A stretch of DNA of 43,701 nucleotides from Alphaproteobacteria bacterium (GCA_027005635.1 JALTLI010000139.1:1-43701), one strand, 5' to 3'. Positions 3,110 through 43,701 are shown, counted from the stretch's first letter. Notes: generated from the sequence alone by a model not told the origin. Numbers and translations are program-made.

Positions 3110-4483
3110 TTAAGATGTTGAAAATTGAAAAACAGAACCACTACTTGAGCTAACAGTATAAAATTCTGTTCCATTATTCTTAAAAAATAAACCTTGTACT
3201 GTAGTTTCTTGTGCTGATATATCAAAAGAATCTAATAATGATGCTGTAGTAATATCCCATGCAGTTGTTAGCTTATAATGATATATGGTATCTGTATTTT
3301 GATTACAAACAAACATCTTAAACCCATCATTTCTAAAATATATATCTGATATGCCATTTATTACTGTAAATGAATCCCCGCTATAAGATGCTGTAGTAAT
3401 ATCCCATGCAGTTGCTAAATCATATTTAAAAATTTTAGTACCATTATCTGTTACAAACATTTCAAGCCCGTTAGGGTTAAATGAAATGCCTGTGGGGATA
3501 CCTGTTTCAGTAGATACACTAAATGAATTGCCACTATAAGATGCTGTAGTAATATCCCATGCAGTTGTTAAACTATATTCATATATTGAATCATTTACTG
3601 AACCTACAGTAAAAAATGTCAAACCATCATTTTTAAAATATAATCCTAAATTTACTGTATCTTGTACTGATAAATTTAACGAATTACTACTGTAGAATGC
3701 TGTACTAACATCCCATGCATTAGTTAAATTATATTCATAAACTGTTACTGTTCCGGTTACAAACATTTTAAGTCCATCAGGTGAAAATGAAATCCCCCTT
3801 GAATCTGCTAATTCAGCCGATATATCTTTAAAAACATTATTATATACTGAGTTTACTAATCGCCATGCATTGGGTATATAACTTAATTTAACACCCACAA
3901 CATCTGATAATAGATCTAATTCAGTTAATAATAAAATCTCATTAGAATTTAATTCTCTATCAAATGATAGTTGTATTTCATTTTCTGTAGAATTTATTAT
4001 TTCTAATGTATATACATGATCTATATTTAATAATGCCTTTGATGCTGAAACAATATCTTCCATTATACCGGAAGCAGAATTTTTTATTATTTTTGTTTTT
4101 ATAACTGCCCTGTATTGTGTATCGTCCAACAATGTATTACCTGTTTCATTGCTACCTTCACCACGGAAAATGCCCCCTACTGATGGATCATTAATATCAC
4201 CAAAAGAACCAACATTTACCCCCACAACACCAGCAAAACCAAAAAAAGTAAATCCACTTGCCAAAACTAATGGCCTCGGTATCCCTACAATTTTACCGAT
4301 AATATTAAGCTGTTCCCCTACTGCTGTATCAATACTTCTATTATTTAATAAATTATTAAAAACTTGATCCAATTCATCAGATCCTTTTAATAATGTTCTA
4401 ATATAATTTATTAAATTTGTAGATTCTTTAAATTGTGTGGCTAATCTACTTTCCGCAAGATCACCATGATTTATTAAACTCAT
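3110..4483 (-). CDS. Baseplate wedge/tail-fibre-attachment protein (P2 gpI / Mu gp48 position) fused to a 5-repeat beta-propeller-like domain
   Basis: Follows the J-like gene with a 4-nt overlap. The C-terminal ~250 aa consist of five 48-52-aa repeats '(T/N)AWD(I/V)(T/S)TA..S......GI.F..(D/N)G..MFV....IY.Y.L'. Confidence 0.6.
   Translation of the reverse strand: MSLINHGDLAESRLATQFKESTNLINYIRTLLKGSDELDQVFNNLLNNRSIDTAVGEQLNIIGKIVGIPRPLVLASGFTFFGFAGVVGVNVGSFGDINDPSVGGIFRGEGSNETGNTLLDDTQYRAVIKTKIIKNSASGIMEDIVSASKALLNIDHVYTLEIINSTENEIQLSFDRELNSNEILLLTELDLLSDVVGVKLSYIPNAWRLVNSVYNNVFKDISAELADSRGISFSPDGLKMFVTGTVTVYEYNLTNAWDVSTAFYSSNSLNLSVQDTVNLGLYFKNDGLTFFTVGSVNDSIYEYSLTTAWDITTASYSGNSFSVSTETGIPTGISFNPNGLEMFVTDNGTKIFKYDLATAWDITTASYSGDSFTVINGISDIYFRNDGFKMFVCNQNTDTIYHYKLTTAWDITTASLLDSFDISAQETTVQGLFFKNNGTEFYTVSSSSGSVFQFSTS
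3113..3871 (-). repeat. Five tandem coding repeats (147-153 nt) inside the gpI-like gene
   Basis: A 28-nt block gatgctgtagtaatatcccatgcagttg is perfectly repeated at 3240-3267, 3387-3414 and 3540-3567. Two more diverged copies flank these. Confidence 0.85.
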
Positions 4484-20103: not shown

Positions 20104-21627
20104 TTAAATAGCTCCCAAATACATATTATTGGCTTCTACAAGCATATCCTGAATGGCATCCATCATAGGATCTATCTGATCATCATTTTTGTGTGTCATT
20201 AATGGTGTAAACTTTCTACATTCACTTAAAAAATCACTTAACCATTCAGCATCTTCAGGCAACCACACATTACCTGATGCTATCTGTGGTACTACATCCA
20301 TAGCCCGGACTACTTTACCTTTACTTCTATCAATCCCTTCAATCGGTATATTGTGTTTTCTTGTAATAGTCTGAACAAGCCCTGATCCTGAACTCTTTTT
20401 TTCCACTAATGCTTTTTGAACACCGATTAAATTATTTTTGTGCTTATATTTATGCTTATTCCAAAATGCTACAAAAGCTGTTTCTAATTCAGGTGTTTCC
20501 AATTTTTCTTTAAATAAATCTATTAATAAAATGCCTTTGGTCGGTGAATACGCCCAACATTGGAAACAAGTGTAATCGTTATGCTCCCCTTTTTCTTGTG
20601 CTGTATCACAGTAAATACGCTTAAATAAAATATCTTTGGGTAGTGCATTAGAATTATAATATTTCCAAAATTCATCTTTAAATATTGATCCACCTTTAGG
20701 GCTTGGCTTCTGTTCATACTGTGAAGCAAAAGTATAAGGATCTGCTTTTTCCATTGCCCTTATATCTTCTTCCGTGTGTTTCATTTTCCATAACGCGCCG
20801 GGTGGTAGGTTATATTCTATCGGTATTCCATGTGTATATTCATGTGGATACCAGTGTTTGACAGGTGCATCAGGAATATCTACAGGTAGCATTAAATGAT
20901 GCCATTTTTCACCTGTACCCCCGGTTAATAAAAATCCACTGGGATCATCTTCATGAACCCTTTGCATAATTAAAATAATAGGGGTATCTGATTCAAGGGC
21001 GAGCCGGGACTTAAATGTATTCATGAATCGGTTATTAATACGGTTCCTGATTGGCTCCTTATAAGCATCATCTGGTTTTATAGGATCATCTATTATCAAT
21101 GCCCCAGTAAACTTGTCCTGTTCCATTCTACCAGCCCTGAAGCCTGTCACCTGACCCCCGGCTGAAGTAGCATATAATCCACCTCCCTGTTCTGTGTACC
21201 ATTTCTTTTTAGAGCTAACATCGTTCCTTATAGCCATAGGAAACAGTTCTTGATATTCGGGGCTTTTAACTGTGTCCCTAACAAGTGTACTGTTCCACAA
21301 GGCTAAATCATCAGAATATGACAGGTGCATAAATAAAGCCTGTGGATTGATTGCTAAACCACGAGCAATAAAATTTACCACTGCTTCTTCTGTTTTTGTA
21401 TAACCGGGTGGGATGTTAATTATTAAACGCTTAATTTTTAAATCCAAAACTTTTTGTAAAGTATCAGCTACTATATGGTGGTGTGCATTAACCATAAATT
21501 TACGAGCTTCACGCTTCTTAAAAAAATAACGTGAAAAATGCAGCCCGGATCTGGGAAGCAAGTATTTAAGCATCCTTTTATCTTGAATTGTGTTTATATC
21601 AATACTCATGTTTAAACACTCTTTCAA
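20104..21627 (-). CDS. terL: Terminase large subunit
   Basis: 507 aa. It has an ATPase core with a Walker-B-like 'ALIIDDPIKPDDA' and a C-terminal nuclease-like part ('IYCDTAQ', 'DQIDPMMDAI'). An alternative start at 21609 is possible. Confidence 0.85.
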   Translation of the reverse strand: MKECLNMSIDINTIQDKRMLKYLLPRSGLHFSRYFFKKREARKFMVNAHHHIVADTLQKVLDLKIKRLIINIPPGYTKTEEAVVNFIARGLAINPQALFMHLSYSDDLALWNSTLVRDTVKSPEYQELFPMAIRNDVSSKKKWYTEQGGGLYATSAGGQVTGFRAGRMEQDKFTGALIIDDPIKPDDAYKEPIRNRINNRFMNTFKSRLALESDTPIILIMQRVHEDDPSGFLLTGGTGEKWHHLMLPVDIPDAPVKHWYPHEYTHGIPIEYNLPPGALWKMKHTEEDIRAMEKADPYTFASQYEQKPSPKGGSIFKDEFWKYYNSNALPKDILFKRIYCDTAQEKGEHNDYTCFQCWAYSPTKGILLIDLFKEKLETPELETAFVAFWNKHKYKHKNNLIGVQKALVEKKSSGSGLVQTITRKHNIPIEGIDRSKGKVVRAMDVVPQIASGNVWLPEDAEWLSDFLSECRKFTPLMTHKNDDQIDPMMDAIQDMLVEANNMYLGAI

Positions 21628-22012
21628 AACGCTTTATTTCAGCTCGGCTTAATTCAGTGATTTCCCCACTTGCTGACTTATCAGTTATCTCTACCGATTT
21701 TTTCTTATTGTGTTGGTATTCTAAAAGTGTTTTGGCTGCATCCCTGCTTACCGCTCTTTCCACTGGTAAAAATCTATGTTCATTTTTAATCAGTTCTACC
21801 AGTTCATCCCACTCAAAAGTATCGGGGGGTTCATCCCCATTAATATTTTCATGATTCAAAATCCACTGATAGACAAGGCTATGCCCCCGCAAATCTTCAC
21901 CATTAGCGAAGCCCAACAGTAAAGTTAGTGGATCTATAAAACCATATTCATCTGCAACTTTTTGTAGTTGTTCATCAAGTTGCATAAAATTAAATTGTTG
22001 AGCCTTGCCCAT
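21599..22012 (-). CDS. Terminase small subunit (putative)
   Basis: 137 aa, first gene of the late arm, overlapping the terL start. Assigned by position only. Confidence 0.5.
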   Translation of the reverse strand: MGKAQQFNFMQLDEQLQKVADEYGFIDPLTLLLGFANGEDLRGHSLVYQWILNHENINGDEPPDTFEWDELVELIKNEHRFLPVERAVSRDAAKTLLEYQHNKKKSVEITDKSASGEITELSRAEIKRFERVFKHEY

Positions 22013-22094
22013 TCAGGATAGCCTTTTATTATCAAGTACATATATGGTAGCAGGGAATAACTGTATATACCACATATAGGGGGGTTCAGGTGCT

Positions 22095-22121
22095 AATATA
22101 CCATTTCGTTCTAATTGTCAA
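22095..22121 (-). promoter_or_regulatory. Candidate late-arm promoter (TTGACA-N15-TATATT, or N17-TATTAG)
   Basis: Minus strand reads cccTTGACAattagaacgaaatggTATATTag, about 85-110 nt upstream of the terS ATG. The leader contains the palindrome GTATATAC (22063-22070). Confidence 0.4.
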
Positions 22122-22186
22122 GGGTTCGGAAAATACCTTTTTAAATCTGACTCTATAAAAATATGCAATTTAAAGAAAAGTGATAT

Positions 22187-22284
22187 GTTCCGTACTGTTC
22201 CTTACTCATATCCGTACTATTTTTGCTAAGTTATTGATTTTATTAAGGGGTAGATCCGAACTATCCTTATTATCCTTATTTTTT
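22187..22284. repeat. Left arm of a ~100-nt modular inverted repeat carrying TCCTTA/TCCGTA iterons
   Basis: Perfect blocks at 22196-22208, 22225-22242 and 22262-22280 are reverse complements of 22453-22465, 22430-22447 and 22392-22410. Confidence 0.9.
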
Positions 22285-22387
22285 CATTTCTATAGGAAAA
22301 AACCATTTTGTGGGGTGGGATTTTGCCTTTAAATTGCTTTAATTTTCAAAAAATACCCCTAAAAATCTACTTTTTCCCACTGAACTT

Positions 22388-22489
22388 AAAAAATAAGGAT
22401 AATAAGGATAATAAGGATATAGGTACTTATAAAATCAATAACTTAGCTACTTTGAGTAAGGAACAAGTAAGGATACAGTAAGGAACAGA
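22388..22489. repeat. Right arm of the inverted repeat: 3x AATAAGGAT (9-nt period) plus 3x GTAAGGA(A/T)ACA (11-nt period)
   Basis: aaTAAGGAtaaTAAGGAtaaTAAGGAtat ... gagTAAGGAacaagTAAGGAtacagTAAGGAacag, read directly. Confidence 0.9.
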
Positions 22490-22593
22490 CACATAAAATT
22501 AAAACACACCACCACCATTATATAAATCATATACTTACATTAAATTTAGTGCTATAGTTACGCTTCTTTACTCCTATTTAAAGGTTTTTTAGC

Positions 22594-22905
22594 ATGAAAA
22601 ACGAAAATGAAAAAATACGAAAATTAAAGGAACTCAAAAAATGCTTTAAACGAGAGCCAAAAAGAGTAATTAAGGTGATAAATAGGCATGAATCGAATAG
22701 AAATAGGCTCTTTACTTCTCGACAAGCGGCACATTTTTTAGGGTTTAGACCAGACTATCTTGCCAAGTTGCGAATATCTGGATTAAGCCCACAGTATAAA
22801 AAGCTGAATGGCCGAGTGTATTACAGAAAGATTGATTTAGTAAGATGGGTAATGAATTTACCTACTTTTACCTGTACAGCAGAAGAAAAAGAAGTTGAAG
22901 ATTAG
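22594..22905 (+). CDS. Xis/AlpA/MerR-type winged-helix DNA-binding protein (first early gene)
   Basis: 'LFTSRQAAHFLGFRPDYLAKLRISGLSPQYKKLNGRVYYRKIDLVRWV' fits the excisionase-type HTH_17 pattern. Confidence 0.65.
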   Translation: MKNENEKIRKLKELKKCFKREPKRVIKVINRHESNRNRLFTSRQAAHFLGFRPDYLAKLRISGLSPQYKKLNGRVYYRKIDLVRWVMNLPTFTCTAEEKEVED

Positions 22906-22961
22906 AATATTTGCAATACCACAGGATCGGGGCTATATTTAGTACCCTGATAAATTAAGTA

Positions 22962-22989
22962 TTGCAATCAGTAATTTTTTGTATATACT
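22962..22989 (+). promoter_or_regulatory. Class-II promoter TTGCAA-N16-TATACT containing the palindrome GTATATAC
   Basis: ttgcaatcagtaattttttgtatatactttaat is near-identical to 31710-31740 and shares gtatatactttaat with 32543-32556. Confidence 0.55.
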
Positions 22990-23164
22990 TTAATTTCCAA
23001 CTCTGAAATATAAACAAATAAATGAAGGGGGTGATTGTTATGTGTGAACAAGGTAAGGAAGCTACCCAAAGTTCACTACTCACATAAAATGCCAATAGAA
23101 AACAATAGCGAAAAAATCCCGTCCTACCTTTTATTTATTTTTAGCACTCTAAATTAGGGCGGGG

Positions 23165-23203
23165 TTTTTAAAACAAACTTATAAAGAGAGATAAATAAAA
23201 TGC
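23165..23203 (+). repeat. 39-nt perfect direct repeat (leader + RBS + ATG), copy 1
   Basis: tttttaaaacaaacttataaagagagataaataaaatgc is identical at 23615-23653. Confidence 0.95.
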
Positions 23204-23614: not shown

Positions 23615-23653
23615 TTTTTAAAACAAACTTATAAAGAGAGATAAATAAAATGC
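23615..23653 (+). repeat. 39-nt perfect direct repeat, copy 2
   Basis: Identical to 23165-23203. Confidence 0.95.
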
Positions 23654-23832
23654 TTACTGAACAAAATCAAAACCGAATTGAACTCACTGATGAAATCACT
23701 AAAATCCTAATTGATAATGCTGTTAAACAGATTAATGAAAAATATAGTAATAACTACCATCAGCAGAACCCCCACCTTTTAAGCACATTCATAGAACTGC
23801 AAAAAACTATTTATTTATCTACACTTTCTTAA
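23650..23832 (+). CDS. Hypothetical early protein (60 aa)
   Basis: ORF track. It has the same leader as the previous gene. Confidence 0.55.
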   Translation: MLTEQNQNRIELTDEITKILIDNAVKQINEKYSNNYHQQNPHLLSTFIELQKTIYLSTLS

Positions 23833-23878: not shown

Positions 23879-26239
23879 ATGAAGAAAGTAATAATTTCAT
23901 TAGGTCAATCTGTTTATAGAAACAGAATTAAGCAGCAGGAAATATCTGTAAAGGATTTATTTAGGAAATTATCTTTACCTGATATTAGGACTGAAAAAGA
24001 TGGTGCTTATTTTATATTTGCATCATTCACGAAAAATATTAGAAATGCTGTTAATGTAGATAAATATTATGGGGCTACTATTGATCTGGATAATACCCCA
24101 CTCGCTATATCTGAAGTACAGGAACTATTTAAAAAATATTTATACTGCATCCACACTACCCACAGCCACAAAGCCCCCGGAAAAGGTGTTAGATACCGGC
24201 TAGTATTGCCCTATCGTACCCCGCAAAGCCCTGAACGCCATGTAAACACATTATTACATATCATTAATATGTTAGGTATGGATAATGTAGATCTGTCCAG
24301 TAAGGCTTTATCCCGGCCTATGTATCTTCCGGCCTGTCCTAAAAAACGTGAAAAATATTTTAAATTTGTAGCTAATGAAAAAGGGCGGCCATTTAATCCT
24401 GACAGAATAAAACTTGATCCATCATTACAGTGGGAACTTGAGCAAAATAATTTACCGGGGCAGGTTGAACCTTTAGATATAAATAAGGAAATTTCCGAAG
24501 GGGAAAGAAATGAATCAATAGCCCGGCTTGTCGGTAAATTTATCCATAATGGAATGGATTTAGGTTTAATAGAACAATCTGCTATTGTGTGGAATGCTAC
24601 TAACTGTGTGCCCCCATTATCTGATAAAGATGTAAAAACCATTGTAAAATCGGTTTATAAAGCCCATAAAAGAAACAGCAAAGATACAGGGTGGGGATAT
24701 GATGAATTAGTAAGGCGGGTTAAAGAGAGCAAAGAACCTAAGCGGGATTATGACTTACTTATTAATCTTATATCTGGTTCACATGAAAAATTAAAGCAAT
24801 CACAGATTGAATTATTAATCCGGTTATTAAGACAAAAAACGGAAATCCCATTAAACTTAATCCGAAGTGAACTTTCAGCAGCAATAGCAGAAAAGAAAGG
24901 CATTAAGGAAGAAGAAGAAGAACTAAACACACAGAAATCTATTAAAGATCTTAAAAAGGAATTTACTGATTGGGTATATTTACGCAAAGACGATAAAATG
25001 TACAACTCAGTAAATGGGCTTGTATATAAAGTGGAAGGTTTTAATAGAATGCATAGCTCAATGATTGAAAAAGGGGCAATGCATTCTTTATTATTAAAAT
25101 TTAAGTCAGTTAAACAGGCTGATATGCTTCAGTTCAACCCATCAGAAGAACGGGTATTTAAAACAGATCACATTATATATGCTAATACCTATGTCCCACC
25201 TGAATTATTTCCAATGCCGGGAAATGTACGGCCAATGCTAAAACATTTTAAATATCTGATACCGGATGAAAGAGAAAGAAATATTATTTTAGATTTTATG
25301 GCTTTTATCATCCAGAAGCCCGGTGAAAAAATTAGATGGATGCCTGTTATAAAAGGAAGTAAAGGTATTGGTAAATCTATTATTGCTGAATTGATTTTAG
25401 CCCCATTAATCGGCATGAGTAATTTTAAACCTGTAGATTCAAAAGCAGTAAGACGGGATTTTAATAGCTGGCAGTTAGATGCACAGATAGTATGTTTTCA
25501 TGAATTAAAAATAGGTGAGACACGAAAAGAGAAAAAAGCCCTTACTGATTCACTGAAATCATTTATTGCCGATCCTACTATTCAGGCACACAGAAAAGGG
25601 CTTGATGAATATACCGTATTAAATAAGTCCAATGTTCTAGGCTTTACCAATCACGAAGATGCAATAATGATAACCCCTGATGAAAGGCGTTTCTGTATGA
25701 TTCGTTCTGAAGTTATGCCCAAATCAATTAATTATTATAACCGGCTAACAGACTGGTTAAAATCTCATAAAGAAGAAATGCTTTATTATTTCACTGAACG
25801 GGATATAAGCTGCTTCAATTATTCTACAGCACCCGAAACCGAATACACTAAAGAGATTAAAGATAGTAGCCAAATGTGGCCTACATCTATTCTTGTGGAT
25901 GCCTTGGGGGATGATCAGCACCCATTTAATACTGTAGGAGCTATGACTTGGGAAGGCATTGTAAACTTTATCCGATCTGAATCAGTAGGTAAGGATATGA
26001 TGGTAGCGGATAACCTGATTAAAGCCACATCATCACAAGGATATTTATTAATCAATGCTTTGCGGGAAATGGGCTTTAGGAAATTCAACGTAGGGAACAC
26101 TGATAGGGTGAGAATTAATAATAAACTCCATAGGGTATGGGTAGCTCCAAGGTCTGTTAGAGAGTTCAGTAAGTTATCATCTAATACAGTTGCTAAACTG
26201 CTGAAGCATGAAAAACAAATTTATGATTTTGATGAATAA
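23879..26239 (+). CDS. DNA primase / SF3 (D5/P4-alpha-like) replicative helicase
   Basis: 786 aa. N-terminal primase-like region ('IHTTHSHKAPGKGVRYRLVLPY'), a PriCT-like helix ('GERNESIARLVGKFIHNG...PPLSDKDVKTIVKSV'), Walker A 'GSKGIGKS' and Walker B-like 'IVCFHEL'. Confidence 0.8.
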   Translation: MKKVIISLGQSVYRNRIKQQEISVKDLFRKLSLPDIRTEKDGAYFIFASFTKNIRNAVNVDKYYGATIDLDNTPLAISEVQELFKKYLYCIHTTHSHKAPGKGVRYRLVLPYRTPQSPERHVNTLLHIINMLGMDNVDLSSKALSRPMYLPACPKKREKYFKFVANEKGRPFNPDRIKLDPSLQWELEQNNLPGQVEPLDINKEISEGERNESIARLVGKFIHNGMDLGLIEQSAIVWNATNCVPPLSDKDVKTIVKSVYKAHKRNSKDTGWGYDELVRRVKESKEPKRDYDLLINLISGSHEKLKQSQIELLIRLLRQKTEIPLNLIRSELSAAIAEKKGIKEEEEELNTQKSIKDLKKEFTDWVYLRKDDKMYNSVNGLVYKVEGFNRMHSSMIEKGAMHSLLLKFKSVKQADMLQFNPSEERVFKTDHIIYANTYVPPELFPMPGNVRPMLKHFKYLIPDERERNIILDFMAFIIQKPGEKIRWMPVIKGSKGIGKSIIAELILAPLIGMSNFKPVDSKAVRRDFNSWQLDAQIVCFHELKIGETRKEKKALTDSLKSFIADPTIQAHRKGLDEYTVLNKSNVLGFTNHEDAIMITPDERRFCMIRSEVMPKSINYYNRLTDWLKSHKEEMLYYFTERDISCFNYSTAPETEYTKEIKDSSQMWPTSILVDALGDDQHPFNTVGAMTWEGIVNFIRSESVGKDMMVADNLIKATSSQGYLLINALREMGFRKFNVGNTDRVRINNKLHRVWVAPRSVREFSKLSSNTVAKLLKHEKQIYDFDE

Positions 26240-26382: not shown

Positions 26383-27083
26383 TTAACCATAAAAAAGAAT
26401 TTATAAAACTGTTTAACAGTACAGCCCATAATCTTAACAGGTTTGAAGTGTTTTCTGATTTTGTAAAAATGTCAGCTATTGCCATATATAACGCCATTGC
26501 AAAAAATGAAGAACTGGAAAAAGAATATTTAGAAATTGTAGGGAAATATAAAAAGGAAGATGTGGATAATATAGTTAAATTATTTAGTCATGTGGTGATG
26601 GGGCTAGAAGCTGAATTTTGTGATTTTTTAGGTGATGTATTCATGGAATCTGAATTAGGTTCTAATAGAATGGGGCAATTTTTTACCCCCTATCATTTAT
26701 CTAAAATATGCTCGGATCTTACTTATTCTGATGATATAAAAAAATCAAAAGACAAAGAGTTCATAACTGTCCATGAGCCTGCCTGTGGTGCTGGTGGAAT
26801 GGTTATTGCTTTTGCTAATACAATGCTTGACAATGATATAAACTATCAGCAGAAACTATTTGTGAGCTGTATAGATAAGGATTATGTGGCGGCTTATATG
26901 TGCTTCATTCAATTATCACTTTTAAATATCCCGGCTGAAGTGATTATAGGAAATGCCCTGAACATGGATATTCAAAAAGTATTCAGAACCCCAGCTTATT
27001 ATTTAGGTAACTGGGAATATAAATTAAATGCCCCACAGAAACAAAAGATAAAAACAAAGATTATTTTAGAATATAACCCTTGA
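26379..27083 (+). CDS. HsdM/N6-adenine-methyltransferase-like SAM-binding protein lacking the catalytic (N/D/S)PP(Y/F/W) motif
   Basis: Motif X 'GQFFTPYHL', motif I 'EPACGAGGM', 'CIDKD' and 'IIGNAL' are present. The protein ends ~35 aa later and has no PP dipeptide anywhere. Confidence 0.6.
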   Translation: MINHKKEFIKLFNSTAHNLNRFEVFSDFVKMSAIAIYNAIAKNEELEKEYLEIVGKYKKEDVDNIVKLFSHVVMGLEAEFCDFLGDVFMESELGSNRMGQFFTPYHLSKICSDLTYSDDIKKSKDKEFITVHEPACGAGGMVIAFANTMLDNDINYQQKLFVSCIDKDYVAAYMCFIQLSLLNIPAEVIIGNALNMDIQKVFRTPAYYLGNWEYKLNAPQKQKIKTKIILEYNP

Positions 27084-27108
27084 CATATCTTAGCCCCTAA
27101 TATATTAT
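27080..27108 (+). promoter_or_regulatory. Cassette promoter P1 (TTGACA-N17-TATTAT), spacer core CTTAGCCCCTAAT
   Basis: The stop codon of the upstream ORF (27081-83) lies inside the -35. No ORF occurs before P2. Confidence 0.6.
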
Positions 27109-27130
27109 ACATACATGGGCTGCGGGGTTA

Positions 27131-27153
27131 TCCGATAATCCACCCCTGCATGA
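27131..27153. repeat. GC-rich 23-mer TCCGATAATCCACCCCTGCATGA, inverted partner at 29591-29613
   Basis: The reverse complement of 29591-29613 is tcggataatccgcccctgcatga, matching at 21/23 positions. Confidence 0.85.
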
Positions 27154-27198
27154 CTATAAACCATATAAAATTAATTTTAATTATTTTAATAAAATCCC

Positions 27199-27227
27199 TT
27201 GACTTATGTTAGCCCCTAATATATACT
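27199..27227 (+). promoter_or_regulatory. Cassette promoter P2 (TTGACT-N17-TATACT)
   Basis: ttgacttatgttagcccctaatatatact. The ATG of the next ORF is 39 nt downstream. Confidence 0.75.
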
Positions 27228-27272
27228 TGTATCCAAGTTAAACATAAATACATAGGAACAAGGCTATGAAAA
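27199..27272 (+). repeat. 74-nt perfect direct repeat (promoter + leader + ATGAAAA), copy 1
   Basis: Identical to 29912-29985. Confidence 0.95.
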
Positions 27273-27475
27273 CAGAAACAGTAAAAGCAAGTAATATAAA
27301 CCACGGTGACACAATTATCATTAACGGTAAAGAGTTTACTGTAAACGGTGAATATATAAAAAACGGTTTTTTCGGTACTACCATTCATGGCCATAATATC
27401 AAGGGCAGTGTAGAACGTGTTTTATTCCCCAAATGGTATAAAGGAAAAATTGTAAAATATGTTCCCCAAATTTAA
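27266..27475 (+). CDS. Hypothetical cassette protein (69 aa)
   Basis: ORF track. Has its own promoter, P2. Confidence 0.6.
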   Translation: MKTETVKASNINHGDTIIINGKEFTVNGEYIKNGFFGTTIHGHNIKGSVERVLFPKWYKGKIVKYVPQI

Positions 27476-27494
27476 AATAAATTAAGATTAGGGG

Positions 27495-27523
27495 TTGACA
27501 TAAGTTAGCCCCTAACATATACT
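27495..27523 (+). promoter_or_regulatory. Cassette promoter P3 (TTGACA-N17-TATACT), core GTTAGCCCCTAAC
   Basis: Preceded by TTAGGGG (27488-94), which is complementary to CCCCTAA (27509-15) in the spacer. Confidence 0.75.
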
Positions 27524-27558
27524 TATCACACCTTAAACAAACACAGAGAGAAAAGGTA

Positions 27559-27936
27559 ATGATTAATTTAACATATTTCATTTCAAAGCAACAAACAAAA
27601 GTGATTAAATCACTGATTAAAGGTGAAGAAGGCAAGTTTTTTGCTGATAAACTGATTCAATTACAGCACATTATTGAAACCATGCCAAAATCCTATGAAC
27701 AGGATGGTAAAGGGGATGAAGCTGTAGCATATCTCCACTACTTCAAAGGTGGGTATGATTTTTATATTACTGAAAGGGATATTGAAAAAGAACAACATCA
27801 GGCTTTTGGTTTAGTTTCAGGCCATGAAATAGAAATGGGCTATATTTCAATAGTAGAATTATTGGCTAATAATGTAGAAATAGATCTGCATTTTGAACCT
27901 ACTACCTTAAAGGAAATAAGAAAAAATTTAAAATAA
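27559..27936 (+). CDS. DUF2958-like protein (family common on conjugative plasmids/ICEs)
   Basis: 'YEQDGKGDEAVAYLHYFKGGYDFYITERD...AFGLVSGHEIEMGYISIVELL...VEIDLHFEPTTLKEI' matches my recollection of the DUF2958 signature. Confidence 0.5.
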   Translation: MINLTYFISKQQTKVIKSLIKGEEGKFFADKLIQLQHIIETMPKSYEQDGKGDEAVAYLHYFKGGYDFYITERDIEKEQHQAFGLVSGHEIEMGYISIVELLANNVEIDLHFEPTTLKEIRKNLK

Positions 27937-27950
27937 ATTAAAATTAGGGG

Positions 27951-27979
27951 TTGACTTATGTTAGCCCCTAATATATACT
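27951..27979 (+). promoter_or_regulatory. Cassette promoter P4 (TTGACT-N17-TATACT)
   Basis: The same upstream tttaaaataaattaaRattagggg as P3. TTAGGGG at 27944-50 is complementary to 27965-71. Confidence 0.75.
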
Positions 27980-28017
27980 TATCTCAAGTTAAATAAATAC
28001 AGAGAGAGATTAAAGCC

Positions 28018-28239
28018 ATGACTAAACAAATCAAAGTAATTATGAAAGACACACTGAACAATGACAAAGAAATTACTCGTGACATTGATATTAGTAATTT
28101 CTATATAAATGGTGGTTCTTCATGGGTGGTTTCTTCTGATGTTGAACGTCAAAGAAAGATGCTTTTAGATTGGATTGAAGAGCGTGCTAATGAACAACAT
28201 AATACACTTTTAGAATTAAAAGCATGGTATATTTTTTAA
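28018..28239 (+). CDS. Hypothetical cassette protein (73 aa)
   Basis: ORF track. Has its own promoter, P4. Confidence 0.6.
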   Translation: MTKQIKVIMKDTLNNDKEITRDIDISNFYINGGSSWVVSSDVERQRKMLLDWIEERANEQHNTLLELKAWYIF

Positions 28240-28257
28240 AATCAATTTTAAAAAGCC

Positions 28258-28286
28258 CTTGACATAAGTTAGGGGCTAACATATAC
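28258..28286 (+). promoter_or_regulatory. Cassette promoter P5 (TTGACA-N17-TATACT) with the 13-mer core inverted (GTTAGGGGCTAAC)
   Basis: Colinear with P3 for ~60 nt except for the flipped core. Upstream AGCCC (28253-57) is complementary to GGGCT (28272-76). Confidence 0.75.
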
Positions 28287-28323
28287 TGATCACACCTTAA
28301 ACAAAAAGAGAGAGAAAAATATC

Positions 28324-29181
28324 ATGACTTATTTCCGTGAAATGACACATGCCCACAATGTTGAATTAACTAATGAAGCAATGCTTCAAAACGCCCCTTC
28401 TGTATTCGCTGAACAACCATTTAATGAAGTATCTAGCAAGTATGGCTTTGTTCCTACTATTAACGTGATTGAAGGCTTACGGGCTGAAGGCTGGCTTCCT
28501 GTGGATGCTACTCAAAAGAATGTAAGGAATAAGGATAAAACGGATTTTACTAAACATCTGATCCGCTTCAGACGTTTAAATGATGATATTAAAGTAGGTG
28601 ATTCTGCTGTAGAACTGCTGCTAACAAACAGCCATGATAGAAGTTCAGCCTTTGTTCTTCATGCTGGTATCTTCCGTATGGCCTGTGCTAATGGCATTGT
28701 AATCGCTGATAGCACATTTAATAAGGTATCTGTACGCCATAATCAAAACGCCCTTGAAGATGTTATAGAAGGCTCTTATCAGGTACTTGAAGAAGTTCCC
28801 TTAATTACCAATGAAGTAGAAGCTATGCAAGAGGTGATCTTAAACCGGGAAGAACAGAAAATTTTTGCCGGGGCTGCTTTGGATTACATGCTACCTGAAC
28901 CCAAAGAAGGGGAAGCTAAAATAGTTACTTCCAAGGATGCATTAATAGGCCAAATCCTACACCCTAAGCGTTCTGCTGATACTGGCAGTGATTTATGGTC
29001 TACCTATAATGTAGTGCAAGAAAAAGCCTTACGGGGTGGCCTGATCAGTCATAAAATGGATGCTAAAGGCCGATATAGAAGAAACACCACACGGGCTGTA
29101 AAGAGCATTGATAAAAACGTAAAGCTGAACAAGGCTTTATGGGAAATGGCTGTGAAAATGAAGGAATTAAAAGCAGCTTAA
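28324..29181 (+). CDS. DUF932-like protein (phage/plasmid/ICE family of unknown function)
   Basis: 'ELLLTNSHDRSSAFVLHAGIFRMACANGIV' matches the DUF932 core (NSHDGS...G.FR..C.NG). Confidence 0.65.
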   Translation: MTYFREMTHAHNVELTNEAMLQNAPSVFAEQPFNEVSSKYGFVPTINVIEGLRAEGWLPVDATQKNVRNKDKTDFTKHLIRFRRLNDDIKVGDSAVELLLTNSHDRSSAFVLHAGIFRMACANGIVIADSTFNKVSVRHNQNALEDVIEGSYQVLEEVPLITNEVEAMQEVILNREEQKIFAGAALDYMLPEPKEGEAKIVTSKDALIGQILHPKRSADTGSDLWSTYNVVQEKALRGGLISHKMDAKGRYRRNTTRAVKSIDKNVKLNKALWEMAVKMKELKAA

Positions 29182-29189
29182 TTTTAACG

Positions 29190-29210
29190 GGGCAAGGATG
29201 CCCTTAATTT
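29190..29210 (+). terminator. Short hairpin terminator candidate
   Basis: GGGCA-agga-TGCCC followed by ttaattt. Confidence 0.35.
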
Positions 29211-29223
29211 AGGAATATAAAAA

Positions 29224-29508
29224 ATGAATATTTTTGGTAAAATAAATAATGAGAAAGCAAGAAAACAACTTAATTTACCACATGACTATGAAATATTTAT
29301 AATGGCTACGGAAATTGATTATTTAAAAGATGATTTTAGCTATAAAGTACATGATTTGTATAGTGAAATAGGATATTTATCTAGTGATGATGTAAATTCA
29401 ATATTTAAAGAAATAAACATAAGCATAAAACTACCACAAAACTATATATTAGTTGGCATGATTAATAAAAATAATAATTCTGAAGTTTATGGGATAATAG
29501 AAGTATGA
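29224..29508 (+). CDS. Hypothetical protein (94 aa, very AT-rich)
   Basis: ORF track. Confidence 0.55.
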   Translation: MNIFGKINNEKARKQLNLPHDYEIFIMATEIDYLKDDFSYKVHDLYSEIGYLSSDDVNSIFKEINISIKLPQNYILVGMINKNNNSEVYGIIEV

Positions 29509-29588
29509 GTATTGAACAACTTACCCCTGAAGAACTGGTTTTATTAATATTGGCATTTATTGTAGGGGCAATAATCGCTAGAATTTAA
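29505..29588 (+). CDS. Unannotated 27-aa hydrophobic peptide (ATGA-coupled)
   Basis: MSIEQLTPEELVLLILAFIVGAIIARI. Its ATG overlaps the TGA of the upstream ORF. Confidence 0.3.
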   Translation: MSIEQLTPEELVLLILAFIVGAIIARI

Positions 29589-29590
29589 TA

Positions 29591-29613
29591 TCATGCAGGG
29601 GCGGATTATCCGA
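29591..29613. repeat. Inverted partner of the 27131-27153 GC-rich 23-mer
   Basis: tcatgcaggggcggattatccga. Confidence 0.85.
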
Positions 29614-29629
29614 CTATCCCGGCTGATGT

Positions 29630-29658
29630 AAGTATTATATGTTAGCCCCTAATATAAT
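29630..29658 (+). promoter_or_regulatory. Degenerate cassette promoter P6 (core GTTAGCCCCTAA plus TATAAT, no TTGAC -35)
   Basis: aagtattatatgttagcccctaatataat. The ATG of 29691 is 33 nt downstream. Confidence 0.4.
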
Positions 29659-29690
29659 GCAAGTAATATTTTGAATAAAAGGTAAATAAA

Positions 29691-29915
29691 ATGACTGAAA
29701 TTATAAACAACACCCGCCACCCTTTAACATTTCATCATGAAAATAAAGAAGGTGAAATAGAAATAACTATCCTTCCTTTTGATTCTGGTGAAATACCAGA
29801 TAATCTATGGAAGAAATTCAAGAAAAATAAAACAGTAAAAGAAAAATTGGAAAATAAAAGTTTAGTAGTAAGAGAAAAACAAAATTTTTTTAAAAAATTG
29901 TTTAAATTTAGTTGA
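29691..29915 (+). CDS. Early paralog (74 aa) of the capsid-adjacent gene 14673..14987
   Basis: See the alignment given for 14673..14987. Its stop codon lies inside the -35 of P7. Confidence 0.6.
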   Translation: MTEIINNTRHPLTFHHENKEGEIEITILPFDSGEIPDNLWKKFKKNKTVKEKLENKSLVVREKQNFFKKLFKFS

Positions 29916-29940
29916 CTTATGTTAGCCCCTAATATATACT
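29912..29940 (+). promoter_or_regulatory. Cassette promoter P7 (TTGACT-N17-TATACT)
   Basis: Identical to P2. Confidence 0.75.
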
Positions 29941-30807: not shown

Positions 30808-31527
30808 ATGAATACAGAAAAAGTAGATTGGATTAAATTATCAAATGATCCAGAAATAAGAAAATTAGCAAAGGAATTATGTGAAAAGCATGGATTCAAT
30901 GCTGATAGTTTAGTTTTTGGCTCCACACCCTATCCTGATTCAGATCAAAAAGTAAAAGATGTGGATCAATATTACTACAGGTGGCGTGAATATGTAGTGG
31001 ATGCTGTGACCATTTCACAAAAAAATAGAAATAAATGTGAACATGGACTACCTATAGATGATCACTGTGCATTATGTGAAAGGGGTTTTGATATGGCTAT
31101 GGATGGGGAATGTAAACATGGAACACCAGAAAATGTATTTTGTAACCAGTGTGAATCCGAATATCAGGAACACAAAACAGAATCAGATCCATCAGGCAAA
31201 GCACAGCATGAACCCGGTGCTAAATTAGATGCTGGAAAGATAAGGCCGGGCTTAGTGCTTGGGGGCTTTGCAAGGGCATTATGGGCAGTCTGTGAGGTAG
31301 GTACTAAAGGTGCTGCCAAATATTCAGATAACGGCTGGATGGAAGTGGAAACAGGAAAAGAAAGATATACTGATGCAGGTTTACGCCACTTTCTAAAGTC
31401 TGCTATGGGTGAAGATATAGATCCAGATTTTGACCTGTTACACATGGCACATGAAGCATGGAACAGCCTAGCAAAGCTGGAATTGAAATTAAGAGAAATT
31501 GAAGCTAAGAATGCTGATCAGCAATAG
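30808..31527 (+). CDS. Fusion protein: N-domain + two CxHG-x8/9-CxxCE zinc knuckles + DUF5664-like (dNTP-pyrophosphohydrolase-associated) C-domain
   Basis: 'KCEHGLPIDDHCALCERG' and 'ECKHGTPENVFCNQCESE' are tandem. The C-terminal 'DAGKIRPGLV...GAAKYSDNGW...AGLRHFLKSAMGEDIDPDFDLLHMAHEAWN' fits the DUF5664 pattern as I recall it. Confidence 0.5.
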   Translation: MNTEKVDWIKLSNDPEIRKLAKELCEKHGFNADSLVFGSTPYPDSDQKVKDVDQYYYRWREYVVDAVTISQKNRNKCEHGLPIDDHCALCERGFDMAMDGECKHGTPENVFCNQCESEYQEHKTESDPSGKAQHEPGAKLDAGKIRPGLVLGGFARALWAVCEVGTKGAAKYSDNGWMEVETGKERYTDAGLRHFLKSAMGEDIDPDFDLLHMAHEAWNSLAKLELKLREIEAKNADQQ

Positions 31528-33138: not shown

Positions 33139-33163
33139 AGCCCCTTGAAATAAGGGGCTTTTT
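33139..33163 (+). terminator. Rho-independent terminator
   Basis: AGCCCCTT-gaaat-AAGGGGCT followed by TTTT (8-bp perfect stem). Confidence 0.75.
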
Positions 33164-33230
33164 AAAGTGTAGCTTGTGCATCCTGTGTGAGTTGAGCTGT
33201 GTTGTGGTCTAATAGCACAGGCTACACTTT
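33164..33230. repeat. Large hairpin/inverted repeat (16-nt arms, 1 mismatch) with a GT-rich 35-nt loop
   Basis: aaagtgtagcttgtgc (33164-79) pairs with gcacaggctacacttt (33215-30). The loop is atcctgtgtgagttgagctgtgttgtggtctaata. Confidence 0.8.
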
Positions 33231-33260
33231 AAAAAGCAAACAAAGAGAGAGAAATATATA

Positions 33261-37640: not shown

Positions 37641-37786
37641 ATAAACGAAAACAGAATGAATATTATACTTCAAATGAAGAAATAGAAGAATTGATTAAAA
37701 AATGTAAAAATCCTGTTACAAAAAATTCTTATAAACAAATTTTAATTAATAGAAAAAAGAGGTTGAAAAAATGCGACAATATTTAG
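37637..37786 (+). CDS. Possible 49-aa basic ORF bridging pol and thyA
   Basis: MNKRKQNEYYTSNEEIEELIKKCKNPVTKNSYKQILINRKKRLKKCDNI. ATGA overlap with the pol stop, and it overlaps thyA by 16 nt. Confidence 0.3.
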   Translation: MNKRKQNEYYTSNEEIEELIKKCKNPVTKNSYKQILINRKKRLKKCDNI

Positions 37787-38634
37787 ATATGTTAAATGAA
37801 GTAATGCTATGGGGTGATAGGGTTCCCGGTAGAAATGGGGAAACCATTGAACTTTTTGGATTACAAAATGAATATGATTTAGCTGAAGGCTTTCCATTGA
37901 TCACCACTAAAAAAATGGCTGTTAAATCTATCATAGGTGAATTACTAGCATTCATCCGTGGCTACCATCATGTACAGGATTTTCAGTCTTTAGGCTGTAA
38001 TGTATGGAATGCTAACGCAAATTCAAGCTATTGGCTTAATTCTGAATTTATGAAAAGCATGGTTGAAAATTCCCCTGAAATTGCTGATGGACTTCTAGGC
38101 CGGATATATGGGGTACAATGGCGAAACTGGACTAATCCACTTGGGGAAAATACAGATCAATTAGTAGAATTAATTGAAGGCATTAAAAATGATCCGTATG
38201 GTAGAAGGCATGTAGTATTAGCTTATAATCCGGGTGAATTAAAATACATGTGTTTACCACCATGCCACATGTTTTTTCAGGTAAACATAACACCATCAGG
38301 AAAATTAAATTTAAAAGTATATCAACGTAGTGCTGATATGTTTTTAGGGGTTCCTTATAATATTGCTTCCTATGCTTTTTTGATGTTAATCCTGTGCCAT
38401 CAAACAGGTTACACCCCCGGTAAATTTATCCATTCTTTTGGTTCAACACATATTTACTCTAATCACTTTGATCAGGTAAATGAACATCTAGGCCGAATAC
38501 CACATAAATTACCTTCTGTTAAAATCAGTTCTGAACTGAATTCTAACTGTGCCCTAGAAGATTATCAGCCAGAACATTTTATTATTGAAGGCTATAATCA
38601 CGAACCGGCTATTAAAGCTGAAATGAATGTTTAA
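37771..38634 (+). CDS. thyA: Thymidylate synthase (ThyA type)
   Basis: 'FPLITTKK', 'RRHVVLAYNP', catalytic 'LPPCHMFFQ', 'YQRSADMFLGVPYNIASYA', 'GSTHIYSNH'. Aligns along its full length to E. coli ThyA. Confidence 0.9.
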   Translation: MRQYLDMLNEVMLWGDRVPGRNGETIELFGLQNEYDLAEGFPLITTKKMAVKSIIGELLAFIRGYHHVQDFQSLGCNVWNANANSSYWLNSEFMKSMVENSPEIADGLLGRIYGVQWRNWTNPLGENTDQLVELIEGIKNDPYGRRHVVLAYNPGELKYMCLPPCHMFFQVNITPSGKLNLKVYQRSADMFLGVPYNIASYAFLMLILCHQTGYTPGKFIHSFGSTHIYSNHFDQVNEHLGRIPHKLPSVKISSELNSNCALEDYQPEHFIIEGYNHEPAIKAEMNV

Positions 38635-38924: not shown

Positions 38925-40338
38925 ATATCAACTTAAAGCCATTGCACGGGGTACTATTCAAAAATACTTAGCCTATTTTTTAGATCCGGGCTTAGGTAAA
39001 ACTTCAATAATATTAATGTTATTTAAAATTTTGAAACATGCTGGCCTTGTAAAATCTATGCTGATAGTAGCACCCTTACGCCCATGTTTTTTAGTATGGC
39101 CTAAAGAAGTTCAGAAGTGGTCTAATTTCAGTGATCTATCAATATGTGTTTTACATAATGAATGGAAAGTAAAAAAGGAAATTTCTATTAAACAAAAGCA
39201 TGATATTTATGTTATTAATCCTGAAGGATTACCTTGGTTAAAAACTCAATTAAAAGGAAAGAGAAAAAAGAATTGGCCTTTTGATATGCTGGTAGTAGAT
39301 GAATCCACCAAATTTAAAAATATGAGTAGCCAGAGGTTTAAAAATATAAAAAAAATGCTTCCTGCTTTTATGAGAAGGTATATTTTAACCGGTACACCCA
39401 TCCCTAATGGATTAGATAATATTCAAGGCCAAATTGCTTTAGTAGATTTAGGGCAGACTTTTGGGATAGTAAAGAAATATTTTCATCATGATTATTTTAA
39501 ACAGATAGGAAAGCCAGAATGGAATCAATGGGTTCCAAAAAATGAAGAAAGTGCTGAAGCTATTTATAAAAAAGTAGCCCCTTTTGCTATGAGGATGAAA
39601 GGATCTGATTACTTGGATTTACCTGAGAGAATAGATAATATAATTAAAATAAAACTTACAAGAAAAGCCCGTAAACATTATGAAGAAGTTGAAAATGAAC
39701 TATTTACATTAATTGATAATAAAGATATTAACGCTTCTACCAGCGGGGTAGCAGCTATTAAATGTCAGCAGATAGCCAATGGTTCTATTTATTATGATGA
39801 TGATCCAATAAACCCACAATATAAAAATAATGATAACAGACCATACCATATTATCCATACCGCTAAACTTGATGCCCTTGAAGATCTGATAGAAGAACTA
39901 AACGGAAAACCATTATTAATCGGATATAAATTTAAGCATGATTGGAAACAATTAAAAAAACGATTTAAAAAGGATATTGTGACATTAGGAAAAGGCACTT
40001 CTATGAAAGAAGCCTTGAAAATAGAAGCACAATTTAACAAAGGAAAAATTAAGTTATTAGCGGCATACCCCGGAACAGCAGCTTTAGGGCTAAATCTTCA
40101 GGAAGCATGTAATAATGTATGCTGGTATTCAATGATACATGATTGGGAAGCCTATGATCAGTTTATTAAACGTGCTGAAAGGCAAGGAAACCACCATGAT
40201 CATGTAATGAACCATTTATTAATTGCAGAAAATACGGTAGATGAAGGGATATATAGATCTGTTACATCTAAAGGGGCTACTGAAGAAACATTTTTAAATG
40301 CAATGGTAAAATATAGAAATATTAAAAAACTCTTTTAA
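38863..40338 (+). CDS. SNF2-family (DEAD-like) helicase
   Basis: 'LDPGLGKTS' (motif I), 'LVVDESTKFKN' (II), 'LTGTPIPN' (III), 'FIKRAERQGN' (VI). There is a 62-nt overlap with VRR-NUC if the ATG at 38863 is used. Confidence 0.85.
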   Translation: MFVPVKKRRIRSLSKKWNPHKYQLKAIARGTIQKYLAYFLDPGLGKTSIILMLFKILKHAGLVKSMLIVAPLRPCFLVWPKEVQKWSNFSDLSICVLHNEWKVKKEISIKQKHDIYVINPEGLPWLKTQLKGKRKKNWPFDMLVVDESTKFKNMSSQRFKNIKKMLPAFMRRYILTGTPIPNGLDNIQGQIALVDLGQTFGIVKKYFHHDYFKQIGKPEWNQWVPKNEESAEAIYKKVAPFAMRMKGSDYLDLPERIDNIIKIKLTRKARKHYEEVENELFTLIDNKDINASTSGVAAIKCQQIANGSIYYDDDPINPQYKNNDNRPYHIIHTAKLDALEDLIEELNGKPLLIGYKFKHDWKQLKKRFKKDIVTLGKGTSMKEALKIEAQFNKGKIKLLAAYPGTAALGLNLQEACNNVCWYSMIHDWEAYDQFIKRAERQGNHHDHVMNHLLIAENTVDEGIYRSVTSKGATEETFLNAMVKYRNIKKLF

Positions 40339-40389
40339 AATATTTGATTTTTTTATTATTTTAATATAATATTTGTATTACATTAATTC

Positions 40390-40641
40390 ATGAGGTTAAT
40401 GAAAATGCCTATAAAAATAGATACTGATGAATATTTATCTAAAAATAATTCTTCAGAATTTAGAGCCATAATAAAAGAAAATCAGATTAAAAAATGGTTT
40501 TTTTGTATAGGCTTTGATATATCTTATGTGGTTATAGGTACATATCACAATGCGTGTGAATCTGTAAAAAAATATTTCAAAACTAGCTATAAAGCCAGTT
40601 ATGGAATAATTAAACTTTCTAAAATTGAAGATATAAATTAA
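40390..40641 (+). CDS. Hypothetical protein (83 aa)
   Basis: ORF track. Confidence 0.45.
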   Translation: MRLMKMPIKIDTDEYLSKNNSSEFRAIIKENQIKKWFFCIGFDISYVVIGTYHNACESVKKYFKTSYKASYGIIKLSKIEDIN

Positions 40642-41158: not shown

Positions 41159-41263
41159 ATGCTTATGCTCCCTGTAATCCATTCTAAGGGGTTTTTTCAT
41201 ATATAGGGCTGTAATGATACCCATATAGGCTGTTTAATAGCACCTACCCCCATTTTTTATAGT

Positions 41264-43293: not shown

Positions 43294-43701
43294 TTACCAT
43301 ACCCGTAAATTACTGATTCTGATATTTGAATCAGCATTACCACCAAAATAAAAATATGATCCACCATAAAATCTATTTGTAGCAATAATCACAGGTTCCA
43401 TTGAACCAATTTTTACAGATATATTTTCCCTATTATCCGATATAACTACCGGTGTTTTTGTTGTTCCAAGTTCGCCACCTGCTACTGTATCTATTAATGT
43501 ATTATTAATAACATCATTTCCCTTATCATCAGTTTCAATTTCACGAACACGCACATATACATCTGGTGATGTATCACGAATACGAATCTCAATTAATTTT
43601 GAAACAGCAATTTCACCATAATAATTACCATCATTTCGTATGCCAATAAATAACGCTTTTCCCGCTGTAGCAAATGTTAAATCAAATGCTATTGTATTTC
43701 C
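43294..43701 (-). CDS. 3' part of the wrap-around CDS (joins 1..349)
   Basis: The frame of ORF 43294..43554 stays open upstream to the window end. The track's 'M' at 43554 is a GTG Val codon inside the longer gene. Confidence 0.7.
   Translation of the reverse strand, partial: GNTIAFDLTFATAGKALFIGIRNDGNYYGEIAVSKLIEIRIRDTSPDVYVRVREIETDDKGNDVINNTLIDTVAGGELGTTKTPVVISDNRENISVKIGSMEPVIIATNRFYGGSYFYFGGNADSNIRISNLRVW
43575..43701. repeat. Second copy of the 127-nt end repeat
   Basis: Identical to nt 1-127. Confidence 0.95.

Follow-up and report, generated by a model that had tools for sequence, protein, structure and literature searches.

The origins of lambda, SaPI and P4 lie inside or abut the gene of the initiator, and that of lambda is located inside the O gene. 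In pSC101, R6K gamma and lambda O/ori, helically phased initiator repeats are accompanied by a melting region and a site for IHF, and the specificity has been exchanged between relatives; this kind of swapping is typical of initiator/origin pairs. The alpha protein of P4 comprises a primase, a helicase and a C-terminal origin-binding winged helix, and its origin is built from repeated short motifs that occur in either orientation. Geminiviruses use one set of iterons in their common region for the origin as well as for the control of divergent promoters. SaPI origins contain 6-12 penta- or hexanucleotide iterons, half of them on each side of a central region and in opposite directions, which are bound by the C-terminal winged helix of the self-loading, SF3-type Rep helicase (fused to a primase in SaPI5) and whose sequence differs between related elements (PMC9371898). 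The experimentally confirmed origin of the Ceduovirus (c2) phages is a non-coding region between the divergent early and late gene blocks, and several types of it occur among otherwise conserved phages (PMC7150918).

The window, i.e., the whole stretch of 43,701 nucleotides that was analysed, starts with 127 nt (1-127) that are exactly repeated at its end (43575-43701), and thus the assembly is circular and represents a complete phage genome of 43,574 bp. Since 127 nt is a usual overlap length in k-mer assembly, it is uninformative on the real termini of the phage DNA. The genome has a GC content of 33% (67% AT). A leftward structural block extends from a 137-aa putative terS (21599-22012), named by its position, and terL (20104-21627) back to about position 346. 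The early/replication block is rightward, begins past 22594, and encodes a primase-helicase with PriCT_1 and DUF5906 SF3 helicase domains (23879..26239, + strand), together with a DUF2800 nuclease, an Enc34-type ssDNA-binding protein, a family A DNA polymerase, a VRR-NUC nuclease, an SNF2 helicase, ThyA, and a MazZ-like diphosphohydrolase. Ribosome sites are in general weak (AAGG/GGAG type) and promoters are sigma-70-like. On account of these ribosome sites and of the clear TTGACA-N17-TATACT promoter families, a Bacteroidota host and Bacteroidota promoters were rejected. The nearest cultured phages are the Pseudomonas phages KPP23 and RSP, with ~35% primase identity, and a nucleotide search against cultured phages gave only distant terL matches. 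A GTDB scan for the host yielded one match, a 7.7-kb contig in a 'Mollicutes' MAG that does not contain the control region and whose binning is uninformative.

Between the divergent late and early blocks, positions 22180-22492 form an imperfect palindrome of ~310 bp, with arms of ~150 nt each that pair nearly to the centre in a gapped alignment. The earlier note had described here an inverted repeat of ~100 nt, which is real, although its size was understated. Its three perfect inverted blocks were found again, with lengths of 13 nt (22196-22208 / 22453-22465), 19 nt (22226-22244 / 22429-22447), and 19 nt (22262-22280 / 22401-22419) and centres at 22330-22341, and the ~11 TAAGGA-type iterons that it announced correspond to 11 TA(A/C)GGA sites. 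Five of these sites are in the left arm and six in the right one, mirror-oriented, forming two opposed sets round a central spacer. Each arm has two tiers, i.e., an outer triplet with a 10-12-nt period and an inner doublet or triplet with a 9-nt period.

The left outer cluster (22186..22221, - strand) contains three GTA(A/C)GGA sites spaced 10 and 12 nt apart (22189, 22199, 22211). It is followed by the left 19-nt block (22226..22244, - strand), which contains AATCAATAACTTA, matching the IHF consensus WATCAANNNNTTR, and by the left inner cluster (22254..22280, - strand), with two perfect TATCCTTAT units and a degenerate ATCCGAACT at a 9-nt period. Read on the + strand, the left-arm sites are TCCTTA at 22199, 22264 and 22273 and TCCGTA at 22189 and 22211. 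Beyond the spacer, the right inner cluster (22392..22419, + strand) contains three copies of AATAAGGAT(A) at an exact 9-nt period, the right 19-nt block (22429..22447, + strand) carries again the IHF-like AATCAATAACTTA, and the right outer cluster (22453..22489, + strand) contains three copies of AGTAAGGA(A/T)AC at 22455-22487 with an 11-nt period. These right-arm triplets and left-arm sites had all been correctly located in the earlier note. The match to the IHF consensus occurs once per arm, mirrored, between the outer and inner tiers; such matches are not enriched genome-wide (5 vs. 7 expected).

The 11 TA[AC]GGA sites fall within 316 nt (22189-22484), where 0.23 would be expected from the rest of the genome, and 9 of the 34 exact TAAGGA copies of the genome are in the array. 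The repeats cluster at this single locus of the phage genome. Folded as single-stranded DNA, the region reaches -69.5 kcal/mol vs. -25.8 +/- 3.7 kcal/mol in shuffles (z = -11.7). The central spacer (22281..22391, ~110 nt) is weakly self-complementary and is proposed as the melting or loading zone. It had been called an AT-rich centre bracketed by GTGGGA/TCCCAC. The bracket is present (GTGGGA at 22315-22320 and TCCCAC at 22376-22381), but an AT content of 62-78% does not stand out in a 67% AT genome, and the nearest-neighbour duplex stability of the spacer lies between the 9th and the 35th percentile of the genome windows, i.e., the centre is not a markedly AT-rich, easily melted element. The least stable and most AT-rich DNA of the genome is found at 40306-40400, in the gap after the SNF2 helicase gene, and it could be an alternative melting site or a second-origin candidate. 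The minimum of the cumulative GC skew lies at ~22 kb, where it is confounded by the switch of the transcribed strand. DnaA boxes were also considered, since the inner unit TTATCCTTA is identical to TTATCCACA at 7 of 9 positions, but they were excluded because the repeat sequence changes completely between close relatives. An exact search of IMG/VR for (AATAAGGAT)3 gave three matches (L021-L023), all of them coding (DNK)n repeats in unrelated contigs.

The layout of the array matches the published description of the SaPI origins point for point, apart from its weak AT-richness and its distance from the initiator gene. As in SaPI/PICI, two opposed sets of hexamer-core repeats, 11 in total, are found together with a fused primase-helicase. 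Unlike in SaPI, where ori is immediately downstream of rep, the array heads the operon, 0.3-6 kb upstream of the primase gene across the loci compared, so it is neither inside nor adjacent to that gene. The array is also larger (~310 bp), with a two-tier 9-/11-nt phasing, IHF-like sites and a centre that is not markedly AT-rich. It shares with P4 the repeated motifs in both orientations and a multidomain primase-helicase, whose C-terminal DNA-binding domain is here only predicted, but P4 has an ori plus a distant crr, whereas the window has a single array. With respect to the iteron-plasmid and lambda origins, it is distinguished by its cores of 6-10 nt and its mirror symmetry. Its location between divergent early and late blocks and the existence of multiple types among relatives are as in c2; however, the c2 origin acts through the non-coding PE1 transcript, needs no phage protein and has no iteron palindrome, and both the c2 phage and its host are unrelated to the phage of the window. 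Finally, multiple putative sites between divergent early and late promoters are also found in the phi29 p4 switch and the geminivirus region, but no p4-like or Rep-like regulator was identified here and the conserved promoters lie outside the array.

Related metagenomic phage contigs were retrieved through their terS and primase homologues. The earlier note had made its proposal depend on the persistence of the repeat architecture in close relatives, and in fact the layout is kept in 12 related loci, where a comparable array is found every time at the head of the early/replication operon, while the repeat sequence itself is exchanged. The array locus is orthologous among relatives. TAAGGA-type repeats are present in the window and in L027, L025, L029, L031, L034 and L038, and all these relatives have the two-tier inverted layout except L038, with mixed repeat orientations, and L027, which has a single inner site. 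The repeat is AGTTGAACTAGT in L024 and L054, GGACTATAT in L053, GTAATGAACAG in L036/L055, GGTTGA(T/A) in L056, where the array is reduced to one inverted and three direct copies, and GAACAG in L057. There are at least five different types of repeats, each of them enriched from 12-fold to several-hundred-fold within one stretch of 300-580 nt. The 9-nt plus 10-12-nt phasing is observed in most loci with a full array (the window, L024, L025, L029, L031, L034, L036 and L053), and the outer triplets of L025, L027, L031 and L034 have a 10-12-nt period. The sequence ATCAATARYTTA, related to the IHF-like AATCAATAACTTA, appears in the control regions of L025, L027, L034, L036, L038 and L056 regardless of the repeat type; this recurrence would fit a site for a host factor. 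The sequence of the central spacer is not conserved among relatives. The identity between arms within a genome (77-91%) is about that between genomes (68-93%), and no claim of concerted arm evolution is possible. No comparable repeat array was found in L037 and L041, whose primases are ~45% identical, and judging from these two loci the architecture appears to fade at that level of identity. L037 lacks the repeat palindrome and has, directly 5' of terS (810-865), three exact tandem copies of GGTTTCTAAGCACCTTAGGTTT with a 17-nt period.

On the late side, the blocks TGGTATATAC..CCCTGCTACCATATATG and TATATTAGCACCT (22040..22121, - strand) are located between the array and terS and are conserved in relatives, also in those with another repeat type; they are candidate late promoters lying outside the array. 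A leftward TTGACA-17-TATTAG promoter-like site was also detected on this side, scored in the window only. On the early side there are two conserved sigma-70-like promoters on the + strand, P1 (TTTGCA-18-TATATT, 22910-22939) and P2 (TTGCAA-16-TATACT, 22962-22989). Just 3' of P2, a strong Shine-Dalgarno sequence, AAGGGGGTGAT, precedes a mini-ORF of 3-15 codons (MRG* in L025, L027 and L031), this leader being located at 23022-23088 in the window, at ~3290-3350 (rc) in L001 and at ~840-880 (rc) in L024; it could encode a leader peptide or serve in regulation. None of the relatives examined has lost P1, P2 or the mini-ORF leader, not even L024 with its different repeats. The distance between P1/P2 and the array is 420 nt in the window, with an inserted gene between them, and ~100-180 nt in relatives. 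The presence of conserved promoter blocks on both sides indicates that the array is flanked by outward-facing promoter regions without belonging to them.

Some other elements of the genome deserve to be mentioned. A family of early/middle promoters, TTGAC(A/T)-TATGTTAGCCCCTAATA-TATACT, is repeated in 6-7 copies (27054-28315, 29638-29656, 29918-29936) with a conserved and partly palindromic spacer (TTAGCCCCTAA / TTAGGGGCTAA) that could be the operator of a different regulator. Both 5' of terS (22080-22097, - strand) and in the 41.2-kb gap at the other end of the leftward gene block (41236-41252, + strand) there is a motif TAGCACCT-N1-3-CCCCC with TATA after it, which may belong to a late promoter or a terminator. 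A direct repeat of 39 nt without mismatches (23165-23203 / 23615-23653) covers the ribosome site and the start of two genes encoding 135-aa and 60-aa proteins. The 135-aa gene, at 23200, has no homologue in the 12 related loci searched, and the repeat that brackets it suggests an insertion by recombination at this point.

Concerning the protein that might bind the repeats, the earlier note had pointed to the adjacent helix-turn-helix gene and to terS. The former (22594..22905, + strand) encodes an HTH_17-like protein with 24.2 bits, below the Pfam cut-off of 27, and a PHROG assignment as 'excisionase and transcriptional regulator'. It has no homologue in the 12 related loci, six of which keep the TAAGGA repeats, and this speaks against its being the binder; it has the appearance of an accessory insertion, found in the window only among the loci compared, that separates the array from the early promoters. 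The putative TerS has no Pfam or PHROG match and its AF2 model has a pLDDT of 50. As a binder it is also disfavoured by the related loci, in which the repeats persist without a window-type terS (L038, L056) or differ next to a similar one (L024). No DNA-binding signature was found in the other conserved neighbours of the array.

The leading candidate as repeat binder is the C-terminal domain of the primase-helicase, an enzyme that SaPI Rep and P4 alpha, as its analogues, would suggest for this role. In the AF2 model, residues 621-786 have a pLDDT of 91 and the last ~90 residues form three helices and a beta-hairpin. The top Foldseek matches of this domain are the winged helices of PadR, MarR and TubR, none of them significant (all E >= 1.2); it has no Pfam match, and no sequence or Foldseek match to the P4 origin-binding domain was detectable in the protein. 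The co-variation with the repeats is mixed. In L024, the C-terminal domain of the primase is disproportionately diverged (48% vs. 58-80% in the rest of the protein), while in L038, which has TAAGG repeats, it is not unusually diverged (55% vs. 58-64%), and this one comparison fits; however, L056 and L036 have a nearly identical putative recognition helix (SSQGY) with different repeats. A recognition-helix code based on a lysine or a histidine before SSQGY, which at first seemed to tell two classes of repeats apart, was tried and rejected: its prediction for L057 failed, and the pair L056/L036 contradicts a simple code. A 60-aa protein, p60 (23650-23832), has homologues of 58-66 aa in L024, L025, L027, L029, L031, L036, L038, L043 and L053, with a conserved Y(H/Y)KQNPHLLS..I.LQK..YL motif and no family match. 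Its gene is nearly always just 5' of that of the primase, either immediately adjacent or separated from it by one small gene, also in the mosaic loci, and p60 may be a partner of the primase-helicase.

The three functions offered in the earlier note, i.e., origin, master switch and pac site, did not fare equally with the comparative evidence: the origin is kept, the switch is kept less strongly, and the pac site is disfavoured. If the array were a pac site, TerS oligomers would sit on phased repeats flanking a cleavage zone, as in SPP1 pacL/pacR or the P1 pac hexamers. Phased repeats that flank a cut site are a known pac architecture, the array is 170-480 nt upstream of the gene in terS position, and a circular assembly with a 127-nt overlap is compatible with headful packaging. 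However, the related loci separate the array from packaging. L038 has AGTAAGG repeats along with p60 and primase homologues, but no homologue of the terS, terL or portal of the window was detectable in it, and a different 171-aa/471-aa pair takes their place. In L056 the array is still present next to an unrelated structural/packaging block with a Terminase_2-type small subunit, and in L057 terS is 2.3 kb away from the array, with four genes between them. The TerS of L024 is 70% identical to that of the window (63-88% in the TAAGGA group), yet its repeats are wholly different. That is, the repeats do not co-vary with the small terminase, whose identity in the window is moreover given by position only, and we consider a pac function very improbable. 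In the mosaics (L038, L056, L057) the array stays with the primase/p60 early module. It is always at the head of the same operon as the primase, upstream of it, with accessory genes intervening, at 1.4 kb in the window, ~0.3-0.6 kb in L053, L038 and L056, 3.6 kb in L057, and 6 kb in L036. All these linkage results fit a regulatory array of the early operon equally well. It might also be the long hairpin or cruciform that functions, and not the duplex sites, be it as a structured RNA, as a hairpin for initiation on single strands, as the target of a telomere resolvase or as a MITE-like insertion. The very strong fold of the window, a palindromic alignment that runs through the spacer, and the extended self-complementarity of L034 and L025 agree with this idea, but the hairpin potential is not conserved in L027 (z = -4.3) and L024 (z = -1.5), both with intact repeat arrays, suggesting that what matters is the repeat sites and not the hairpin. 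Furthermore, the centre is not a perfect palindrome, no second copy of the array exists in the genome, as would correspond to a dispersed mobile family, and Rfam gave only sub-threshold noise (MIR5380 with 29 bits vs. 150, and an S4 leader with E = 0.8). Neither a protelomerase nor a transposase was recognised in the genome, and we consider a hairpin function very improbable.

A more serious competitor, although less probable than an origin, is an early/late transcription switch for which the array would provide the binding platform, similar to phi29 p4 or the geminiviruses and with IHF-assisted bending. In such a switch, a phage regulator would coat the arms and repress or activate either the outward promoters or weak promoters starting inside the array. 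In favour of this idea, the array is located precisely where the late and early blocks diverge and heads the early operon in every case, and the order of repeats, IHF-like site and promoter is the classic geometry of an upstream regulator. In L027 a lone repeat overlaps the would-be -35 position of the conserved TATATTAGCACCT block. The inner units yield GATAAT -10-like hexamers, and weak divergent promoter-like sites, not conserved, are found inside the array at 22349 (-) and 22374 (+). In addition, specificity swapping is also typical of repressor/operator pairs. Nevertheless, promoter-like hits are no commoner in the array region than in shuffles (7 vs. 7.0 expected), and the sites neither overlap nor abut the core promoters that they should control: P1 and P2 are found at 100-420 nt from the array, in the window with an inserted gene separating it from P1, and both promoters are kept in L024. 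No regulator gene is conserved beside the sites, the HTH gene being window-specific. The seven-copy early/middle promoter family (27054-29936) has no TAAGGA repeats and carries a different conserved element. Gene-family annotation recognised no lysogeny or immunity genes in the phage genome, and no integrase, repressor or partition genes either, so the readings of the array as a ParB/centromere site or as an immunity operator were discarded as well. Origin and switch may coexist, as in the geminivirus common region. A particular form of this coexistence, which we find rather improbable, is that a dual origin and early/late switch is read by an unrecognised small phage protein, e.g., p60 or one encoded elsewhere, and not by the primase-helicase. 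The specificity of this reader would move horizontally, uncoupled from the replication enzymes, so that one lineage would contain at least five types of origin, and the 9- and 11-nt tiers would reflect two binding modes, i.e., spiral coating and same-face clustering.

For the array as an iteron-type replication origin of the SaPI/P4 kind, we estimate the chances to be about even. This reading is based on the 11 hexamer-core repeats in two opposed sets, as in the SaPI origins, on a conserved layout whose repeat sequence is exchangeable among relatives, and on the association of the array with the primase/p60 module and not with the packaging genes. It is also based on the clustering of the repeats at a single locus, on the location of the conserved promoters outside the array, on the presence of a fitting PriCT_1 + DUF5906 primase-helicase, and on the precedent for such a location in the Ceduovirus (c2-type) phages. 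Against it are a spacer that is no standout unwinding element, an array that is not in or abutting the primase gene, the mixed co-variation, and the lack of a significant Foldseek winged-helix match. Most likely, the array is an ordinary iteron-type origin and not a packaging site.

If the array works as an origin, a phage-encoded initiator would bind the GTA(A/C)GGA repeats, whose opposed sets flank the ~110-nt spacer. The outer triplet of each arm lies nearly on one helical face and the inner doublet or triplet follows the 9-nt period. A host IHF-like bending protein would act at the mirrored ATCAATAACTTA between the tiers, and would fold each arm into a compact complex, and two helicase assemblies would then be loaded head-to-head on the spacer. 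The late and early promoters, firing outwards on both sides of the array, would help to open the spacer through the negative supercoiling that they generate. The initiator would most plausibly be the primase-helicase (23879-26239), which would use its winged-helix-like C-terminal domain in the way of SaPI Rep and P4 alpha.

If it is an origin, this locus offers a first access to how replication starts in low-GC phages of ~43-48 kb that form an uncultured lineage known from metagenomes only. The five or more comparably laid-out repeat types are a natural series to study how initiator/origin specificity changes in phages, and they could explain incompatibility or exclusion between co-infecting relatives. 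There are also two lessons for annotation, i.e., that a repeat array adjacent to terS is not to be taken for a pac site by default, and that a neighbouring HTH gene is not necessarily the binder.

Three additional features were observed far from the array. The genes at 30808-31527 and 37771-38634 encode a MazZ-like dATP/dGTP diphosphohydrolase domain (PF18909, E = 2.6e-23) and a thymidylate synthase, which neither demonstrate nor exclude a modified-base pathway. Within the leftward ORF of 457 aa (3110-4483), four copies of a ~73-nt repeat with a ~150-nt period (3215-3743) probably encode a repeated domain of a tail fibre or another structural protein. Finally, a 23-nt inverted repeat, 96% complementary and with a 35-nt loop, is located at 33157-33237, just 5' of the DUF2800 nuclease gene.
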